Source: Octopus vulgaris (lineage: Eukaryota). From it: a DNA stretch of 64,000 nt. Position 1 is the stretch's first letter. Each line of letters opens with the position of its first letter. This document shows positions 3,753-63,836 of this stretch, in pieces. Location: contig OX597832.1 of NCBI GenBank assembly GCA_951406725.2, positions 5,394,001 through 5,458,000 on the forward strand, in the 5' to 3' direction. A program made the translations under genes and the position numbers. The notes beneath the pieces were generated by a model. It was given only the letters and a program-made list of their open reading frames with translations, ran no database searches and was not told where the DNA came from.

Positions 3753-4045
3753 CGACCAGGCTATCAGATGTTGCTACACATCGCTGGTCACAATGCGCTT
3801 CGCATTGTATTAGCCTTCAAATGACGCCAACCCGCTGGCTAAGCGAGCAGGCCAACAGAAGAAAGAGTGAGAGAAAGTTGCGGCGAAAGAGTACAGCAGG
3901 GATCGCCACCACCCCCTGCCAGAGCCTCGTGGAGCTTTAGGTGTTTTCGCTCAATAAACACTCACAACGCCCGGTCTGGGAATCGAAACAGCGATCCTAC
4001 GATCGTGAGTAGCTGCCCTAGCCACTGGGCCATTGCGCCTCCACC
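3753..4045 (-). mobile_element. tRNA-derived SINE (family C) with RTE-like 3' tail
   Basis: Minus strand head ggaggcgcaaTGGCCCAGTGG (A box)..GTTTCGATTCC (B box); tail resembles the 3' end of the RTE at 10053. Confidence 0.85.
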
Positions 4046-10052: not shown

Positions 10053-11334
10053 ATCACTTTGATCACTTTGACCGACCAGTCCGTCAGGCGTCCAGTTGAC
10101 ACCGCTGGTCACAGCACGCTGTCCACTCCTCTCTGGATCACGCCTTTCTCATCCACGTAGATCCCAATCGTCCTCTTGAAATCGTCTCTCCACCGTCGTG
10201 GAGGTCTTCCGGTGGTCTTTCGCTCACGCGGTACCACTCGACAACTGCGTGCGTCCACCGATTATCGGTGAGCCGGGCGACGTGTCCAGCCCATCTATAC
10301 TTGCTGCGAGTATACTCTGCGATGACATCTCTCACGCCAGACTTCTTTCTGATGATGTTGCTATTTATGTGCTCTCTCAACGAGATACCAAGCATTGACC
10401 TTTCCATGGCTCTTTGAGCCGTTATCTCTTTGCTCTTCTTCTGTGGTAGCCCATGTTTCACTACCATATAACATTGCAGGCAGAACTGCACTGTTAATGA
10501 GGTTGGCGCGGGTGGTCCTGTCCAACCTTCCCTTGAGCACATCCCTTATGCCATTGAACGCCTTCCATCCGGCCCTTACTCTCCGTGAGATCTCCTTTTT
10601 GATATCCCGGCACATATTTACTTCCTGTCCCAGGTAGACATATTCTCTCACCTCCTCTCTATTTCATCACTGCCGATCACCATTCGACCTGTTGGTACGT
10701 TGTCTGACCGCATGAACTTTGTTTTCATGCGGTTCATCTTGAGACCTACTGCAGAACTTTTGATGTCGAGCTCCGTTAGCATGGTCTGAAGCTGATCCAT
10801 GTTTTCAGCGATGAGTACGATGTCGTCAGCGAAACGAAGGTGAGTGAGGAGCTCGCCATTGATGTTGACACCACCTTGCCATTCGATGCCTCTGATGATC
10901 TGTTCGAGACATGCAGTGAAAAGTTTTGGGGAGATTGTATCTCCCTTCTCGACCGGCACTCGTATGGGTGATGACAGTAGAGCTATGTCGGTGGTGCATC
11001 CGGAATTTGCCTCTCTGAGCAGCTGCACATATTGCGCTTCGATTCCTTGCCTCTGCAGCGAGTTCAGCACTGCGTTGGTTTCGACGCTATCGAAGGCCTT
11101 CTCATAATCTATAAACGCAACGCAAATAGGCAGCTTGTACTCATTTGCTCGTTCAAGCAGTTGCGTTAGAGCAAATATATGGTCCATTGTGCTGTAGTTC
11201 TTCCGGAAGTCTGCTTGCTCCCTCGGTTGTTGTTCGTCGAGACGACGTGACAACCTGTTCAGAATTATCTTCGTGAACAGCTTGTACACGTGAGACAGCA
11301 GGCATATGGGTCGGTAGTTCTTTAGATCTTCTCT
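10053..11334 (-). mobile_element. 5'-truncated RTE-clade LINE (reverse transcriptase and C-terminus, frameshifted)
   Basis: NYRPICLLSHVYKLFTK..FIDYEKAFDSV..GDTISPKLF..LRFADDIVLIA; YVYLGQ; RWAGHVAR; tail next to (TA)n. Confidence 0.95.
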
Positions 11335-11636
11335 AATACAAAATGGGACAAGAACGCAAAACATCCGGACAGTTAGGTGATACAAAAATGAGACAACAAA
11401 TCATCCAGACAGACGATACAAAGAAAACAAGGACGGGTCATTCGAAGTTTTCTTTCCTCAGTCAAATACCAGATTATCCTCGCAATTTCGGTTGATTATA
11501 CTTGAGATTACTCCAATCTGGCCAGCCCCAAGGAAAAACTAAGCTACGAGCCTTAGGTTCCTTAGAAGAAAACAGTGAATGTATACAAAAACAAGGACGG
11601 AAAAAAAAAACGGACAAGGTTACACAAATACAAACC
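11335..11636 (-). mobile_element. PLE pLTR-like repeat (same family as 22196-22940)
   Basis: Homologous to 22196-22470; carries CTGAGGA..GAAT..GTC motif on minus strand. Confidence 0.55.
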
Positions 11637-22131: not shown

Positions 22132-22195
22132 ATTTAATAAAAATCATCATATCCTCCATCTTCCGTTTATCATTTACAATATATATATAAAGAAA

Positions 22196-22940
22196 TACAA
22201 AAAATGGGACAAGAATGCAAAACATCCAGATAGTTAGATGATACAAAACAAGGACAAGAAAAAACAAGGACGGGTCATTCGGAGTTTTCTTTCCTCAGTC
22301 GAGTTCCAGATAATCTTTGCAACTTCGGCTGGTTATACTCGAGATTGCTCCAATCTGGCCAGCTCTAAGGAAAAACTAAGCTAAAAGCATTAGATTCCTT
22401 GGAAGAGAGCAGCGAATGTATACGAAAACAAGGACGGGAAAAAATGGAGAAATGATACACAAATACAAATGCAAATAACAGGACATTAACAACAGGTGTC
22501 TTTCGACTAAGGACGAATTAAATTAAGCTGGTGTGTGTGGAAGTGAGCCTTACGGCAGGGACATAGGAGATGAGAGTCATGGGGAGGAATATAGATGTTG
22601 CACGGATGGTAGTCGAACCAAGAAAGGAAGGTCAGGCTTGGCCGAACACCGGTCACATGGAGAAAGAGGAGAGAGGTAGAGGCAGGGGGATAGAAGAATT
22701 AGGGAGGGACGATTCGCTGCTTCCTTCCAAGGAATCTAGTGTTCTTAGCTTAGTTTTCCTTGGGGCTGGCTACATTTGAGCAATCTCGAGTATAATCAGC
22801 CGAAATTGCAAAAATAATCTGGAACTCGACTGAGGAAAGAAACCTCCGAATGACCCGTCCTTGTTTTTTCTTGTCCCTTTTTTTATATCATCTGTCTGGA
22901 TGTTTTGCGTTCTTGCCCCATTTTATGTTTTCTTTTTTAT
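22196..22940. mobile_element. PLE-like element with ~220-bp inverted arms
   Basis: 22196-22417 is the reverse complement of 22712-22930; short TA runs at both ends. Confidence 0.7.
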
Positions 22941-23119
22941 ATACATATGGCGGCGTGTGTACACTTTGGTCTCATATATATATATATAATTTTTTTTGTA
23001 CGACTCTCTTATTCTTTCATTCTTTCTTTCTTTCTATCAGCCCCTTCACACTTTTTTCGTTCTTTCCACTCTTCTTTCTTCCGTCCTCCCTCTGTCACAT
23101 TTCCTGACTTTCTCTTCAT

Positions 23120-23285
23120 ATACGACGGGCTTCTTTCAGTTTCCGTCTACTAAATCCACTCACAAGACTTTGGTCGATCCGAGGCTATAGTAGAAGACAC
23201 TCATCCAAGATGCCACACAGTGGGACCAAACCCGGAACCATGTAGTTGTTAAGCAAGCTTCTTATCACATAGCCATTCCAGCGCC

Positions 23286-23383
<98 letters not shown>

Positions 23384-23780
23384 CGCAGGAGTGGCTGTGT
23401 GGTAGGTAGCTTGCTTACCAACCACATAGTTCCGGGTTCATTCCACTGCGTGGCACCATGGGCAAGTGTCTTCTACTATAGCCTCGGGCCGTCCAAAGCC
23501 TTGTGAGTGGATTTGGTAGACGGAAACTGGAAGAAGCCCGTCGTATATATGTATATATATATATATTATGTGTGAATATGTTTATGTGTCTGTGTTTGTC
23601 CCCCACCATTGCTTGACAACCGATGGTGGTGTGTTTACGTCCCCGTAACTTAACGTTTCAGCAAAAGAGACTGATAGAATAAGTATTAGGCTTACAAAGA
23701 ATAAGTCCTGGGGTCGATTTACTAAACGCGGTGCTTCAGCATGGACGCAGTCAAATGACTGAAACAAGTAAAAGAGTATA
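23120..23780. mobile_element. Two head-to-head SINE family B copies around (TA)n
   Basis: 23120-23286 minus; 23381-23780 plus (ggcgcaggagtggctgtgtggt..gggttca..ccactgcgtggcacc). Confidence 0.9.
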
Positions 23781-25418: not shown

Positions 25419-25460
<42 letters not shown>

Positions 25461-25468
<8 letters not shown>

Positions 25469-25576
25469 ATCACGTGACCGACCAGACCATCAGATGTTGC
25501 TGTACATCGCTGGTCACAATGCGCTTGCATTGTTTTAGCCTTCGAACGACGCCACCCCGCTGGCTAAGCGAGCAGG

Positions 25577-25580
<4 letters not shown>
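25461..25580 (-). mobile_element. 3' tail of SINE family C (RTE-like) inserted in (TA)n
   Basis: Matches 3753-3856. Confidence 0.8.
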
Positions 25581-25626
<46 letters not shown>

Positions 25627-33120: not shown

Positions 33121-33689
33121 ATGAGGGCTGTAAAAGCACTCTAAGGAACATTTGCTCTTTGAGTAAGTGTCAGATCAGTGACAAAGACATAGAGGGTTTC
33201 ACTGCTGATGATATAGGCTGGTAACAGCTGTGTGGAGATGTAGCCACGATTACTGACATTGCTAAGGTCTTCACCAATACATATACATGCACTATTAACA
33301 ATAGAAACTGAGGGTCCTAAACAAGACAGTTCAACCACCAAATATCTTACTTTTAAAAGAACAGATATTGTTGTATGATTTCAGTTGGTAACCAAGGGTG
33401 TGTGAGCGTGTGTGCATACATATATCTAAATCTAAATATATACACATGGGTGAATATGTACGTGTATGTGTGTGTGAAATCCCGAACACTGTAGAGTAGA
33501 AGTATTCTCCTAGTGAGTTAAGTCTTTACATTCTCAAAGTAGTGCCAAGATAGCCAAGAGCTAAACGACTGAAATGTATTTTATTTACATTATTCATTGG
33601 CATAGCCAGTGTCTTTAAGAATGGAATGAAAATGATACAGTCTCATTTCTCGCCTGCAGGATTTATTTTTATTATACATTTTAAACTTT

Positions 33690-33947
33690 TACATTCTTTT
33701 ATTCTTTTACTTATTTCAGTCATTTGATTGTGGCCATGCTAGAGCATTACCTTAGAGGGTGTTAGTCGAAGAAATCGACTCCAGGACTTATTCTTTGTAA
33801 GCCCAGTACACACACACACACATATATACGACGGGTTTCTTTCAGTTTTCGTCTACTAAATCTACTCACAAGGATTTCGTTGGCCCGACGCTATAATAGA
33901 AGATACATGCCTAAGGTGCCACGTAGTGGGCCTGAACTCGGAACCAT
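33690..33947 (-). mobile_element. SINE family B, head truncated at a (TA)n/PLE insertion
   Basis: Family motifs; stops at ggaaccat. Confidence 0.85.
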
Positions 33948-34153
33948 ATATATATATATATATATATTTATTATATAGAAGGAGCTTCTACAGGACTAGA
34001 ACTGTTTCATTCAAGAGAAATCTTCCTGAAGATTTCTCTTGAATGAAACAGTTCTAGTCCTGTAGAAGCTCCTTCTATATAATAAATTAATTTTACTCTG
34101 CTATGTATTGAGTACCTTATTTACTGTGGTTAACCCCGAATCAACCCGGGACC

Positions 34154-34216
<63 letters not shown>

Positions 34217-34316
34217 TTCCGAGTTCAGGCCCACTACGTGGCACCTTAGGCATGTATCTTCTATTATAGCGTCGGGCCAACGAAATCCTTGTGAGTAGAT
34301 TTAGTAGACGAAAACT
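33844..34316. repeat. Nested perfect inverted repeats (104-bp outer arms, 60-bp inner arms)
   Basis: 33844-33947 = rc(34213-34316); 33966-34025 = rc(34028-34087). Confidence 0.95.
34026..34063 (+). ncRNA. Hammerhead motif lacking the 5' strand of stem I
   Basis: CTGAAGA-tTTC/tctt/GAAt-GAAA-Cagttcta-GTC-ctgt, beginning exactly at the palindrome centre. Confidence 0.7.
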
Positions 34317-35784
34317 TTTTTTTAATAAAATTTTGATATACCTTGAAGAGAAATCAGTATTATTACTATTGTATAGCCGTAATAGACCTAATCAATTAGT
34401 CCTACGATCAACAACGTTCCACTTTCGACCATCTCGTCTTTTGATATATCCAGAACAACATCATCTAATGTAATTCCTCATTTAAAAAAATAGTCGAGTG
34501 TGATGAGAGGGAAAGTTAGCTCTATTTCTAGCAACTCCAGTGACCGGCATAATGCTTCTCCTCGTTGGCTAGAAATCAACATTATAGAAGGGTAGTGAAG
34601 ACGAGAACGAAGTATTAGAAGTATTGGCCAATAAACCGCGAGATTGACGATTTGTGTCCAGTTACTTGCTTATACATTGGATACACAACCAAAACTTAAC
34701 AACAAACGAATTAACATAGCTCTGAGTTAGATACCACTGTGTGACATGTGATTTATTGGCTTGCAACGATCAGTTCAACCAGGAATTTGTCTTTCTACTT
34801 AATGCCATAGAAACTGTGATATGTTCTGGTTCTGCAGACGGAAGTCTCAACAATGTTTCGATTTCTTATTGCGTCAGTTTTCTGTACCTCTTATTTCTGA
34901 TCATATAAAGTAAATTCAAAAGATAATAACTCGAGCCATTCTAAGGAAATAACCTAGGGTTCCCTATAAGAGAATAAACTACGCTCCTACAAGATTGATC
35001 CTTTTTAAAGATGTTAAATTAGAGTTCTCCAAATCGCTAATTTGAGCCTCTATAAGCAGAGCTGTAATTAGCATACTACAAAAGCAAAAAAACAAAAAAA
35101 CCTTAGTGGGGTCCCAACTATCATGAAAAGTTCAGGAAATAATTTTATTAATTTATTCCATCCAGGTTAAGCGACTTGCCCGGGCCATTGTGGTTCTACA
35201 CCAGACGCCACGAAGCATGAATGTTTGGCTTGAGCTGAAATATCTCATCTACGCACGCCATGGTTATGGATGAAGGCAGCAGTTAGCTAACTGAACTGGC
35301 TGATCCTAGCCATTAACAGTTGTATGTTCATCCAATCAGCATCTCGTGGTATGACATTCGTCATTGACTCAGTAAGCTCGTCTGCCGAAATAGTTCACGT
35401 CTACCATGCTGCGTCCTATGATTCCAACGTACCTTGGCTCGGATGGCTTCATGCTATTTAATCCATAGCTTGGACCGAGAAGCAATAGTGATTAAGCGGT
35501 AGTTCTGCACTCCTCAAAACCCTGCAACACCCGAACCAGGATCCCATTACCGGATGCAGTTTAAAGTCATACTAAATTCATACTTTAATGTATTCTAAAG
35601 TTGGCAAATTCATTAGAGCTGAAGTATTTGATCTGCGTTTAAATCCTATCGAGGATGAATTTAACTTTTATTACACCGAATTTTAAACAAACATACACCA
35701 ATTATATCTCAATATTGATTCGATCGTTTATGACACTTCTCTTCACAAAACGTGTTCAGTCAAAAGAAAACAAAATACAAAAAG

Positions 35785-36734: not shown

Positions 36735-36905
36735 CCTCGCCGAGGTCGACTTTGCCTTTCATCCTTTCGGGGTCGATAAATAAAAGTACCAGTTTCGCAC
36801 TGGGGTCGATGTAATCGACTTAATCCCTTTGTCTGTCCTTGTTTGTCCCCTCTATGCTTAGCCCCTTGTGGGCAATAAAGAAATATATATATCTCCATAT
36901 AGTAC

Positions 36906-36954
<49 letters not shown>

Positions 36955-37073
36955 CATATAGTACCAGTTTCGCACTGGGGTCGATGTAATCGACTTAATC
37001 CCTTTGTCTGTCCTTGTTTGTCCCCTCTATGCTTAGCCCCTTGTGGGCAATAAAGAAATATATATATCTCCAT
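36735..37073 (+). mobile_element. SINE family A 3' part, tandemly duplicated across (TA)n
   Basis: 36786-36898 identical to 36961-37073 by eye. Confidence 0.88.
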
Positions 37074-38328: not shown

Positions 38329-38360
<32 letters not shown>

Positions 38361-38401
38361 CAATAATAAATCTCTGAGCGAGATATAAACAGTAACTGCT
38401 C

Positions 38402-38692
38402 TATAACATAAGGAGGATCAGCCATCTATCTGAATGTGGCTAGGGACAGGGCGGGGTGGTGGGTGTGTTACTGATGCATTTAGCCCCAGGCGATCATCGA
38501 CGTCACCAGAAGGGCTGACACCATCACGGTGTCCTTGCCAGGCTGATCTCCCTTTGCAGGCTGGCAAGGACACCGTGATGGTGTCAGCCCTTCTGGTGAC
38601 GTCGATGATCGCATGGGGCTAAATGCATCAGTAACACACCCACCACCCCGCCCTGTCCCTAGCCACATTCAGATGACTGATCTCCCTTATGT

Positions 38693-44760: not shown

Positions 44761-46109
44761 TATTTACTCGTCCGTCTAAACGAAGACGGGAACACGTGGG
44801 GGGGGGGGGAACTAATTGCAGGTGGTGAGCGTTGTTGCATCCGGAAGTGGTCACGCGGTCAAACTCAAATGGTTGTGAGTCACAACTGCAGTTTGTTTTC
44901 TTGTATGAACATTTTGCATAGTTTAGACATGGATGACACAGAAAGCAGACATGCTGCGTTGCGCAGGATTGGAAACGTGAAACATCAACAGAGCACTTCT
45001 GGAGAATGGATGAATGGATTTGTTGTGCCTTTACCCAGTCGCACACACACGCGCATGGCCCGGTGGTGCGCGGGATGATAACATGAAGCATCAACAGGGC
45101 GCCGACAAAAATTTTAATGCTCTCATTTCCTCTGCCAAATTGGACAAAAAGGCTTTCATGAAATATTATTCGCTACTTATAATGCATAAGTAGTGTCAAT
45201 ATTTTATCATCGGAAAATGGCCTAAAGCAAAAATAAAACCCAGTGCTGTATACTCAAATCTGATTAATCTGCATTTTTGTGGGGCCAGAAATTTTTCTAG
45301 TCAACAGAAATTCGAGGAGCTTGATTAATGTTTGTTGTAAATTTGAAGGAAAGCAACTGGATACTCTTCAAATCGCGGGCCTTAACGCTGCGAAAATGCT
45401 TTCATAATGTGGTTTATCTGCCCCTGGGCCCGCATTAAGCAAAAAGTTGAAATTTGTTTTTGTGCATGACACTCCATGGACCCTATGTAATGCATGTGTA
45501 AAATTTCATTAAAATCGGTTAGGTGGATCTCGATTTTTAACGACATGACAAACACAGACAGACACATCCTGTGTCTTATATATATAGAGTATGCACCTTG
45601 TTGGAAAAAATTGGAAATGTGAAAGGAAAATGAGTCTAAGTGACTATTTGTGAAAAAGAAAGAAAGAAAGAAAAATATATCTTCGTATTTTATCAAAGCA
45701 AATAAACTGATGTATTGGTTTGTTTTTGCATAAAGAGTTCATATGAAGTGGAATAAGTTAGTTTAGGACAGTATCAGATACTTAGTATTGTAAACATACT
45801 GGCGTAGAAATAGATTAATAATGAATAAAAGATAAAGTGGAAGAATATAAAAGTGAAAGTGTTTAGCAAACAAACTGGAAATACGCGCAACAACTTTAAA
45901 TGTAGCTTCAAAACAAATAGATGTCATCCTAATCTTTAATCAAAACCAACCTCACGTAATTAATTCACTATATTATCTTTTTGAAGTTTTTGAAGAAGTA
46001 GCACCTTAAGTGAAAGTGGAGGCGCGTGGCTTAGTGGTTAGAGTGTTGGACTCATGGTTGTAAGACTGTGGTTTCTCAGCTGACAAAAATGTGTAATCCT
46101 GCGACGGAC

Positions 46110-46649
46110 GTTGCTAGAAGTGCAGGTGAAGGAGTTAGTTATATGATAGGGACAATGATGGGTGGCTGTGAGGATGGTGGTGTTGGAGAGGTAGGGGCAA
46201 GTGCGGCAGCGTCGGCGGAAACAGGAGAACGAGCTGGATTGGGAGGTAGGGTTAGGGAAGAAACTGTGGACCAGGAGGTCACATAGGTTGTGGGCTCGTT
46301 TGAAGGGGGGAAGGGGTAGGTTGGGGAAGATGTGCGAAGTGGAGGTGTCGGACTGGAGTCGCCGGAAGGCTCGGAGACGTAGGATGGAGGGGTGGTAGGT
46401 GAGGGGAAACGGGAGAGGGTAACGACGAGGCGGGTGCGGGGCGAGAGAGCAGATGCACGGTCCACGGAACGTGATCTGGCAAGGGCGGTGTGGATAGTGG
46501 TGAGGGGATATCCACGAAGGATGAAGTGGTGAGCCATGTGTTGAGACTGAGTTTCAAAGTCATGGTTGTCATTACAGAGCCTGGGCAGACGGAGGAATTG
46601 GGAGTAGGGGATGGAGAGTTTGGTGTGTTTGGGGTGGGAGGGGGAGAAG

Positions 46650-46655
<6 letters not shown>
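46110..46655 (-). mobile_element. Penelope-like ORF fragment (RT thumb, linker, start of GIY-YIG region)
   Basis: SHPKHTKLSIPYSQFLRLPRLC..FILRGYP..PLTYHP..FKRAHNLCDLLVHS..CFRRRCRTCP..FTCTSSNV; abuts (TA)n. Confidence 0.9.
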
Positions 46656-46979: not shown

Positions 46980-47010
46980 AACATTAATAACAATATTAGT
47001 TAAATAAATC

Positions 47011-47270
47011 AATTGCAGCGTGGAAGGTGTTTATAAGCCATTTAAGAAACACACAAAAACCGTTAGATTCACTTCAACATTTATATTTAATTTGTCAAAA
47101 ATAAATATAAATATAAATATAAATGTTGAAGTGAATCTAACGGTTTTTGTGTGTTTCTTAAATGGCTTAAAAACACCTTCCACGCTGCAATTGTTTTCGT
47201 TCTAGCACACGATCTCAGATCAAGTCACTCGCTGTGCAAGTACATCTCCGTAAAGTTAAATAAATAATAT
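47011..47270. mobile_element. Asymmetric fold-back mini-element (PLE-like)
   Basis: 47011-47078 = rc(about 47115-47191), near-identical; right arm continues ~75 bp to a TA run. Confidence 0.7.
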
Positions 47271-49714: not shown

Positions 49715-50722
49715 CAGTCGTCTTCAAGATTATTCATACCCTTGTTAATTTTTGTGATTTAAAATTTTTTTTGTGATGAAATGAATGCATTTTGTCAAGT
49801 TTGTTTATGAGTTATGTGACCAACAAGTGAAAGAATAACAGCAATACACAATTCAAGAAATTCTTCATTTCAGGGGCATTTTATTCATGGATTTTCAAAA
49901 AGTGCCATGTTCAAAATTATTCATACCGTAGGTTCACTGAGTCTAATATCTTCCTTTAATAGCCAATATCATAGTCTTTGTTTTTTTATGACTGCTTCTA
50001 GACGATTCTTGTACGTGTCCACAAGCTTCCTGCATGTCTCCTGTGGAATGTTGGCCCACTCTTCCTTGCTGAAAGCCTCAAGCTCGGTCAGGATGGTTGG
50101 TTTCCCAGCAATCACTCTGGTCTTCAAGTCTCACCACAAGTTCTCGATCGGATTCAGATCAGGACTCTGATTAGGCAATTCTAGGACATCATTTTTCTTG
50201 AACCGTTTCTTCACTACCTTGATGGTATGTTTCGGATCATTGCCTGCTGGTACTTCCAGTTGTGACCGAATTGGAGCTTCTCAACGGATTCCTTCACGTT
50301 TTCATCAAGGATCTTGATGTAATCTTCCTTTCTCATGATCCACTGGACTTTGACAAGGTTCCCTGTGCCGCTGGAAGAGAAACATCCCCATAGCATTATG
50401 TTTCCATCACCATTCTTGACGGTGGGAAACAATGTTCTTCGCCTTATATCCTTCTTTCTTCCTCCAGACCTATTCAGTGTCCATATGGCCAAATAACTCC
50501 AACTTCGTCTCATCAGATCAAAAGCTGAGATCTTGCTTCAGATGACCTTATTTGGCCATATGGATGCTAAATTTCTTGAATTGTGTATTGTTGATATTCT
50601 TTCACTTGTTGGTCACGTAACTCATAAACAAACTTCACAAAATGTATTCATTTCATCACAAAAGTAAAAAAAAATCACAAAAATTAACAAGGGTATGAAA
50701 AATTTTTAGGACGAAAAATTTT
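49715..50722 (-). mobile_element. Internally deleted Tc1 element with long TIRs
   Basis: ~150-bp inverted ends; [34 protein letters not shown]. Confidence 0.93.
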
Positions 50723-57269: not shown

Positions 57270-57370
57270 CTGTGTGTGTATAATAATATGACAACAAAAG
57301 AATGAATGATACCTCGATATTATGTAAATAGAGGAATTTTTCTATAATATATGTGAGAGTCGGTTGCCAT

Positions 57371-57431
57371 AATAAAACTCAGAGTTTCCGATGCCGGGGT
57401 AGAAGTCTGGTCCGGCATCTCATCAGTTATT
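57371..57431 (-). ncRNA. Type I hammerhead ribozyme motif
   Basis: AATAA-CTGATGA-GATGCCGG/13 nt/CCGGCATC-g-GAAA-CTCTGAG-TT-TTATT; 5-bp stem I, 8-bp stem II. Confidence 0.8.
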
Positions 57432-57451
57432 AAGACAAACAAAAATGCATT

Positions 57452-62390: not shown

Positions 62391-63836
62391 TAAGGTGCGT
62401 TCAAAAAGTATCTGACTTCATTTTTCCTGTCAAAATGAATGCCGCATAAGCAAAATCCTTTGGCTGAGAAGGGAATTCACTTTTCCTTCGTACCGTAAAT
62501 CCTCGAGTATAATCCGCATTTTCTCCCCAAAATTTAAAGGTCAAAATCCCTAGTGCGTACTATATACGAGGCTAAAAATGAAAATTATTTTCTAAGCAAT
62601 GTCCAAGTCTCTATTTGCTGCCCGGCAATGCTTATTCAGACGCATTTTGTGGTGTCGGGTGCGAAAATACCTTAAGCTAAGCCAGTAAGCAATGAAGTCA
62701 TAAAAGAATCATTCATAACATGCAGTAAGCAACATTTATTAAATGTTATTACTGTTATTACTGTTATTTCTTTATTTTCTGCAAACAAAATGCACAAAAA
62801 AGCTACACGTTTGCATTATGTTATATATACAATAATAATAAAGGACGTTACCGTATAGTTTTACAAACCAAGGACGTTATATAGACCTCCTTGACTCAAG
62901 TTAGAGAAGGGGTGCGTATTATACACAAGGTTTAGGTTTTTCAGAGGTACAGCCCCCTAAAAATCCCCTGCGTATTATACTCAAGGGCGGACTATACTCG
63001 AGGATTTACGGTATACGCGTAAATTTTCGCGCCGGTAGGATGCATCATTTCCCGGTTAGAATACACTTAGAGTATTACACCTAGAGTACAGACGTGTGGT
63101 GCGCGCTAGTCGGATTTCCGTTTACACGTAATTTGACCGAACGCGTCAAGCAGAGACCATAAACATATGCTTCATCACCAGTGATGATGGTTTTTATGAA
63201 GTATGAGTCGTGGCTTGCACAGTCCAACATAGCCTGAGTGATTTCCATGCGGAGTTGCTTCTCCTGGTCCGCCAGCATCTTGGGGGCGAATTTCGCCAAC
63301 ACTCTCCGCGAACACAAATCCTCCGTTAAACTGGAATGCACTGATCCTGTGCTTGCTCCCACTTCGTGTGCAGTTTCCTGGATTATTATAAGACGATCTT
63401 GCATGATTGCTCGATCCTTGTTTCGGTTCCTTGCTTCGGCTGGTGGATGGCATGCCTGAGAGTGTCTCGCCCTCCACTGAGGCGCGGCCGTGCTTGAAGC
63501 GGTTGTACCACTCCGTGATCTGAGTTTTGCTCATGGCATCATCGCCAAAGGCCTGCTGAATCTTCTGGATGGTTTGAACTAGAGTATCACAAAGCTTTTA
63601 GCTAAACTTGATGCAATATCTCTGCTCGATGTGTTCGGTGAAAACGAAAATCCTACGAACACGCACTACACGCTTGTACTCTAGGTGTGACAGCCGGGAA
63701 CTGGCACAGCCTACCAAAGCAAACACTTTCAAGCGCGCGCAGGAAGGGTGACGTCACTTTTTAACCAAAGGATTTTGACAACCTGGTACTAGTTTGATGG
63801 GGAAAATAAAGTCTGATAGTTTTTGAATGCACCTCG
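62391..63836 (-). mobile_element. Internally deleted mariner element
   Basis: TA flanks, ~45-bp imperfect TIRs; EQRYCIKF..WYNRFKHGR..AKFAPKML..IITGDEAYVYG. Confidence 0.92.
62493..63011. mobile_element. TA-TSD MITE (Tc2/pogo-like) nested in the mariner
   Basis: TA-CCGTAAATCCTCGAGTATA ... TATACTCGAGGATTTACGG-TA; subterminal gcgtattatac repeats. Confidence 0.92.

Follow-up and report, generated by a model that had tools for sequence, protein, structure and literature searches.

A probable Penelope-like insertion that turns back at a hammerhead-like core, beside an inverted copy of its flanking SINE, in Octopus vulgaris

Layout of the locus

The stretch of Octopus vulgaris DNA analyzed here (the window, 64,000 nucleotides of contig OX597832.1, without any N) carries a SINE copy at 33824..33947 on the minus strand, which is 83% identical to the copy at 23382-23548. 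Its strand and tRNA-like head were assigned from A-box- and B-box-like motifs in that full copy. The host SINE ends at GGAACCAT, at position 123 of 167, where other copies continue for ~44 nt; of the 12 other hits in the window, 11 extend to position 153 or beyond. An (AT)11 tract forms the left junction (33946..33967) and is followed by an insert (33966-34156), by an (AT)29 tract at the right junction (34157..34214) and by an inverted copy of part of the SINE on the minus strand (34213..34316). The right flank (34317..34800) is neither the SINE's missing part nor a continuation of the copied template, and had no second match within the 64-kb window. A likeness of this flank to the insert was considered and dropped (scores of 26 and 24 against a shuffle mean of 23.1, sd 3.5).

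The insert consists of two arms of unequal length. A short inverted arm of 60 bp (33966..34025, minus strand) faces the palindromic part of the direct arm (34028..34087, plus strand), and the two are complementary at 60/60 positions around a 2-nt spacer, CT (34026-34027), which forms the first two letters of CTGAAGA. The outer end of the short arm matches 34087, within the AT palindrome AAATTAATTT (34084-34093). From there the right arm extends one-sidedly for 69 nt (34088..34156, plus strand) in high-copy family sequence; a small stem-loop (loop AATCAACC) closely precedes its end, where the (AT)29 tract takes over. The preliminary description had reported a perfect 60-bp palindrome centered on the CT of CTGAAGA and a right-arm extension of about 70 bp leading into (TA)n, and both were recovered as described. 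No second copy of the insert was found within the 64-kb window.

The outer copy at 34213-34316 is the exact reverse complement of 33844-33947, the left outer arm as read on the plus strand (104/104); counting shared TA letters, the perfect outer arms reach 124 bp (33844-33967 and 34193-34316). Compared with the majority of six other SINE copies in the window, these 104 bp carry 14 differences, 10 of which are absent from all six, and the best match among 10 other window copies agreed at 91 of 104 positions. The right-hand piece therefore copies this very SINE and does not represent a second insertion, in agreement with the earlier report of an inverted SINE copy that includes its private mutations.

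Neither side of the structure contains the final ~44 nt of the SINE, and sequence from 34317 onward is unrelated. As the right flank does not continue the SINE, target DNA has probably been lost at the site, judging from this one assembled allele, and the inverted SINE copy is not a mirror-image target-site duplication. The earlier wording, that target DNA was duplicated in inverted instead of direct orientation, was overstated: the right flank does not continue the SINE, and neither of the two other long fold-backs in the window carries an inverted flank copy. At this allele no direct target-site duplication is visible beyond the TA tracts, and such duplications are often indiscernible in microsatellites. 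Both 3' ends of the element adjoin the same host end, SINE-GGAACCAT-(AT)n.

The hammerhead-like motif and its element family

A descriptor search placed a hammerhead-like motif of type I layout at 34022..34069 on the plus strand. Stem I is formed by CTTC/GAAG (4 bp) and is followed by the core CTGAAGA at 34026-34032, which contains CUGANGA, by a stem II of 3 bp that has a basal U-U, by GAAA at 34045-34048 and by stem III (ACAG/CTGT, 4 bp, 8-nt loop) with GUA at 34062-34064. The core elements CUGANGA, GAAA and NUH are thus all present in order, and the cut is predicted after GUA at 34064. Of 20000 shuffles in which the 5' half was left intact and the following 42 bases (the 3' half) were permuted, 7 fitted the descriptor; the strict descriptor gave 0 matches in 30 block-shuffled windows, and its only other match in the window itself lies at 57426 on the minus strand. 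Rfam returned no hammerhead at the gathering score, none among 61 matches at E<=10 and none on 34018-34085; at the gathering score it also missed the strict motif at 57426(-). Sub-threshold Rfam matches to miRNA-type hairpins were rejected as structure-only.

Folding of 34026-34157 gave z = -0.66; energy alone lends no support. RNA folding predicted -108 kcal/mol for the 60-bp hairpin at this locus and -2.7 kcal/mol for the ribozyme fold, suggesting that the long hairpin would outcompete the ribozyme here. The G10.1-C11.1 pair that closes stem II is highly conserved (Cervera and de la Pena, PMC4209133) and is absent from this 3-bp stem with its basal U-U; because of this we call the motif hammerhead-like rather than an active ribozyme. 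At the level of sequence, the hammerhead core that had been placed at the turn of the palindrome is there.

The minimal hammerheads of Penelope-like elements (PLEs) (PMC4209133) and the anole PLE PAc (PMC11167929) share with our motif the core letters, a stem I of 4-5 bp, an extra base 5' of stem II, the palindromic letters of loop 3 and a position ~120 nt before the element's 3' end. Their stem II has 7-8 bp with G10.1-C11.1, whereas here it has 3 bp without that pair, and stem III here has 4 bp; the comparison is one of letters, not of activity.

To place the insert in a family, 33480-34156 was compared with three contig sets (X1, X2, X19) and one raw-read run (X22), runs with word shares below 0.2 being left out. 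The summed depth over the insert, which is not a copy number, was 1e5-1e6 against 6-55 over unique flank in all three contig sets, and the insert is clearly a dispersed high-copy repeat. Contigs of X1 and X2 end at 34155, adjoining the insert's end here, and another family copy (X1 record 4) leaves our sequence at 34087, where the short arm ends. Pattern scans for the insert gave no match in metagenome or viral contigs.

Several features of the insert resemble those of PLEs. Reverse transcription of PAc starts 111-118 nt after the stem II start, in an AC-rich stem-loop, and PAc cuts AT-rich DNA on both strands and inserts in vitro from uncleaved RNA (PMC11167929); our long arm ends 123 nt after the stem II start, beside a stem-loop with an AC-rich loop. 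PLEs are described as carrying an adjacent inverted 5'-truncated copy and a tail of 30-40 bp on one end, and as using (TA)n targets (PMC8557442), and the palindromes at the inverted junctions of Adineta PLEs were interpreted as self-priming (PMC3846280). Our insert has an inverted 5'-truncated copy directly at its 5' end (33966-34025 versus 34028-34087), the hammerhead-like motif in its terminal repeat and, as a dispersed repeat, TA tracts at both junctions; its one-sided extension is 69 nt, where the optional PLE tail is 30-40 bp. It retains only ~135 nt of the element's 3' end, with no ORF. Recently active Penelope families have been reported in Octopus vulgaris (PMC13282606).

Taken as a unit, the insert compares closely with those described for endonuclease-bearing (EN+) PLEs, which consist of a pLTR, an inverted 5'-truncated copy and an optional tail (Adineta vaga Pen, PMC3846280; Craig et al., PMC8557442). 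Head-to-head arms, a palindrome at their junction, a hammerhead motif in the repeat and an AT-rich or (TA)n target are shared with the published descriptions, and the tail on one arm and the lack of a visible target-site duplication within a microsatellite may be so too. The differences are the tail of 69 nt rather than 30-40, the lack of an ORF and the 104 bp of host DNA inverted outside the element. The inner hairpin structure is a known PLE by-product. A MITE reading of the insert was rejected, the arms standing head to head without a spacer and one of them being tailed.

The insert works like a PLE end and is probably one, although no copy linking its family to a PLE-clade reverse transcriptase (RT) or GIY-YIG domain was found in the window or in metagenome and viral contigs. 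It is likely a young and heavily 5'-truncated PLE insertion. The claim of a recent PLE-type insertion into TA tracts is in keeping with the perfect palindromes and with the head-to-head arms, tail and (TA)n of the PLE pattern.

The turn at the core and the inverted SINE copy

The center of the inner palindrome lies in a micro-palindrome, CTTC-CT-GAAG (34022..34031, plus strand), made up of the 5' strand of stem I and the start of the core, so that 4 nt can be assigned to either arm. With 39 nt between it and the predicted scissile bond downstream, the turn is not the end of a cleavage product. As the 5' strand of stem I, CTTC, is complementary to GAAG of the core, a 2-nt center follows from the native sequence, with 4 nt of microhomology. 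The earlier proposal that synthesis switched templates at the hammerhead stands in so far as the turn is at the core; a role of the ribozyme is made less likely by the distance of the turn from the predicted cut and by the 4 nt of microhomology, and a snap-back on the latter explains the turn better than ribozyme cleavage does. There are sixteen 4-bp snap-back sites within 34022-34156, so microhomology alone does not select this one and another factor, for example the 5' end of the RNA, must favour it.

A survey of other copies for inversion points at the CUGA had been suggested, and the comparison with other runs bears on this. Among the 24 pieces listed (of 96668), three cross the center with small differences, and none equals this locus: X1 record 3 (4 other letters, 3 gaps), X19 record 10 (4 and 1) and X19 record 11 (0 and 3). 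Only X19 record 10 has 31 letters on either side of the center, and the places of the gaps are not given for these pieces. In X22, 15 raw reads matched, 8 of which cover 34032-34100; in 6, the letters before 34026 are loose (agreement 0.81, median 15) and finish with the core in inverted form and a loop of 6 nt. These six reads, taken on the other strand, have TGCTTC before CTGAAGA, which extends stem I to the predicted 5 bp. All 8 reads carry T at 34071, where the window has C, and hence derive from a sister subfamily and not from this locus. All 8 reads over the motif also appear to stop matching near 34106, either at an end point of their own or in a diverged tail.

Turning at or near the core thus recurs in other copies, with different junctions, in a sample biased toward junction-like records. 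The three contigs and six reads, together with the turn near CTGA at this locus, could be read in a strong form, in which the switch point is set by the ribozyme itself and inverted target duplications are a regular product of the element. We regard this as very improbable, since the turn lies 39 nt from the predicted cut, PLE insertion in vitro needs no cleavage (PMC11167929) and records sampled for their likeness to this junction cannot bear out a clustering. The motif-bearing element at 57426(-) has no fold-back, and an inverted flank copy accompanies 0 of the 2 other fold-backs in the window (38406-38692 and 47006-47197), which argues against inverted flank duplication as a regular feature.

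The inner structure, in which two TA tracts enclose a dispersed repeat end and, head to head with it, a shorter inverted copy, could have formed in three steps. A nick in AT-rich DNA would have primed reverse transcription from RNA position 34156, on RNA uncut by the ribozyme; the cDNA would have ended at ~34022, where its 3' GAAG could pair with CTTC; and synthesis would then have returned for 60 nt to the AT-rich stretch, able to join a TA end. Two cDNAs joined at ~34022 would give the same product. We consider this course, with a PLE-type insert, reverse transcription of uncut RNA and snap-back at the micro-palindrome, to be probable. A fold-back of a long read at its adapter was rejected as a source of the inner palindrome, being contradicted by the tail and by the related junctions in other runs.

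For the outer copy, the short-read comparison covered 33480-34156, the left part of the structure. In a k=31 graph built from the window, 33844-33967 is expected to collapse into one unitig of 124 letters, which vanishes when the right arm is removed. X1 record 2 starts at 33844, is 124 letters long and showed 0 differences over the 94 letters compared, and this match in start and length to the predicted unitig supports the presence of two arms. A variant at 33874 would also account for its start (33874-30), as a longer TA allele would for its end. Another contig, X2 record 19 (33844-33934), is ambiguous, as it fits variants at 33874 and 33904 too. Because words of the insert family occur elsewhere, the word shares of the runs are uninformative on the filled versus the empty allele.

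These data bear on whether the outer copy is an assembly artefact, in which the assembly path flips strand at a TA tract, rereads 104 bp of the SINE and joins the next contig. A (TA)n tract is its own reverse complement and the copy is perfect, both of which suit such an error. Depth points the same way: the arm contig stands at 29 and the flank at 54.8, where a duplicated arm should equal or exceed the flank. Nothing across 34316/34317 was among the matches listed for the query 33480-34156, and the listed joints (15 of 65) and loose ends (21 of 730) included neither that junction nor an empty allele. Against this stand a contig of an independent data type, short reads, with exactly the predicted start and length (from X1, which may be the window's own source sample), the end of that contig at 33967 where a variant would put it at 33968, the window's freedom from N, and the asymmetric tail, which is family sequence that a fold-back read could not create. 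We therefore hold an artefact to be improbable, and the outer inverted copy to be probably real, a rare local rearrangement like those reported for LINE-1.

The reading that we tentatively favour, at somewhat less than even confidence, is that the inverted SINE copy was made while the same break was being closed, as a one-off templated piece coupled to integration. The host end SINE-GGAACCAT-(AT)n would have been used twice, through copying by a repair polymerase or the RT, through the end of a sister chromatid or through a cleaved flap, and joining of the doubled end to the right flank would then have cost the SINE its last ~44 nt or more. Neither palindrome contains a difference (upper 95% bound of 1.8% for the 164 bp together). 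The window also holds two older fold-backs that still match at 98%, and seen beside these, the perfect palindromes and the intact 2-nt center favour one event over a slow second one. Such integration-coupled copying is preferred to a later or an earlier origin of the copy also because comparable products are known from LINE-1: the events described include inverted duplications and fold-back junctions of replicated ends, as well as three insertions showing local inversions and three carrying templated flank DNA (PMC11702581). These non-canonical LINE-1 insertions share with our locus an inverted copy of adjacent target, probable target loss and two RT-extended ends joined head to head at microhomology. 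They differ in element class, in having poly(A) where we find TA tracts, and in scale, being somatic events of kilobases where we have 104 bp on a germline scale, in one assembled allele.

The same PLE insert could instead have received its SINE copy later, by a template switch during replication (quasi-palindrome formation). A nascent strand stalled in the right TA tract would be brought by the 60-bp hairpin to the left tract, copy 104 nt of the SINE backwards and rejoin its template further on, so replacing the SINE's end. In its favour, the hairpin (-108 kcal/mol, calculated as RNA) has a self-complementary TA tract on either side, the copy starts exactly at a TA tract, long AT repeats are reported to stall forks (PMC11797062, PMC12972899), and short-range switching makes inverted repeats flanked by dissimilar sequence (PMC5453318). 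Quasi-palindromes (Ripley; the four-point model of PMC5453318) likewise yield a perfect inverted repeat from a neighbour that replaces local sequence. This process needs no retroelement enzyme and cannot supply the 69-nt tail, so it would explain the outer arm only. The intact 2-nt center and the palindromes without differences leave little time for a later event, in the minimum-energy DNA fold the TA tracts are self-paired and not paired with each other, and the switches reported in apes were inter-strand, not intra-strand (PMC5453318). On balance we judge a later switch unlikely, although the next most plausible course after copying during integration.

In a further alternative the order is reversed: a fold-back duplication had already produced SINE-(TA)n-inverted SINE when the element, by ordinary insertion, entered the TA center. 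(TA)n is a preferred PLE target (PMC8557442), several elements in the window lie within TA tracts, and at 23118-23548 a (TA)45 tract separates two full, mutually inverted SINE copies, which may have been inserted separately or may derive from an old inverted duplication at that tract. That pair is only 85% alike and full length, and may stem from two insertions. This course would moreover demand two very recent events at one spot, and a TA tract in mid-SINE requires prior truncation, seen in 1 of 12 other hits. We find it decidedly improbable, less credible than an artefact and slightly more so than regular, ribozyme-fixed inversion.

How the inverted arms and tails of PLEs originate and what their hammerhead does are current questions (PMC8557442, PMC11167929), on which this locus gives two testable handles, a turn at a ribozyme-encoded micro-palindrome instead of the cleavage site and two element 3' ends on the same host end. 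As a single allele, it is an anecdote. In Drosophila virilis, an intron ends at the 5' end of helix I (PMC4209133). By conjecture, a TTCAG acceptor upstream of stem I would pair with CTGAA. In this family the DNA of the hammerhead might be a built-in snap-back primer, with the core CTGAA(G) pairing with the upstream CTTC, or perhaps with a TTCAG 3' splice site, and starting the second strand independently of cleavage. A dimeric enzyme could in addition prime two cDNAs at the element's two RT start sites, with a sister chromatid or flap supplying the second copy of the target strand. We think this combined scheme improbable; if true, it would make an inverted target duplication a signature of integration at a replication fork.

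No description of an inverted host-flank copy at a PLE insertion was found in the literature searched, and subscription papers and supplements may hold cases; in passages of bioRxiv 10.64898/2026.07.22.740005 nothing further on inversions was found.

Other repeats in the window

The fold-back at 38360-38692 lies between two TA tracts. Its arms of ~140 bp match at 98% over 118 bp and are separated by an 11-nt spacer, and a further ~46 bases stand on the left. It carries CTGATCTCCCTT at its center and right end, in a layout like that of the 33966-34156 insert; neither a hammerhead core nor an inverted flank copy was found there. A second fold-back, at 47006-47197, has 84-bp arms at 98% around an AT-rich 24-nt spacer, and element-like sequence continues to its right; it has no other copy in the window and no inverted flank copy.

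The strict hammerhead motif on the minus strand (core at 57426; stems I, II and III of 6, 8 and 4 bp) belongs to a piece of ~170 bp at 57281-57451(-), which lies between microsatellites, starts ~25 nt before the core and has no fold-back. At 22179-22943, inverted ends of ~240 bp (87%) surround an interior of ~300 bp, with a CTGAGGA..GAA..GTC motif near 22830, and a second, older copy of this element lies at 11335-11634.

Broken frames with a C-x4-C-x2-C motif occupy 46038-46653(-) and end at a TA tract; they resemble the linker and endonuclease of Neptune-type PLEs. The frame at 46038-46553(-), which looks like a PLE endonuclease remnant, has no Pfam match and a best Atlas score of 0.75, and is therefore given no weight as evidence; nothing links it to the insert family.

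At 36875-37050 the direct repeat CTCCATATAGTACCAGTTT flanks (TA)20 and is followed by a second copy of a SINE 3' part, an arrangement that we read as a local tandem duplication with TA expansion. A repeat of ~120 bp lies between two (TA)21 tracts at 25420-25622 and has relatives in the window (3753-3855, 10060-10113), one of them beside a TA tract. Other transposon sequence was also recognized: a LINE RT fragment (PF00078) at 10138-11400, a mariner HTH fragment (PF17906) at 63175-63597 and, at 49718-50714, 145-bp inverted repeats around what appears to be a decayed Tc1-type transposon.
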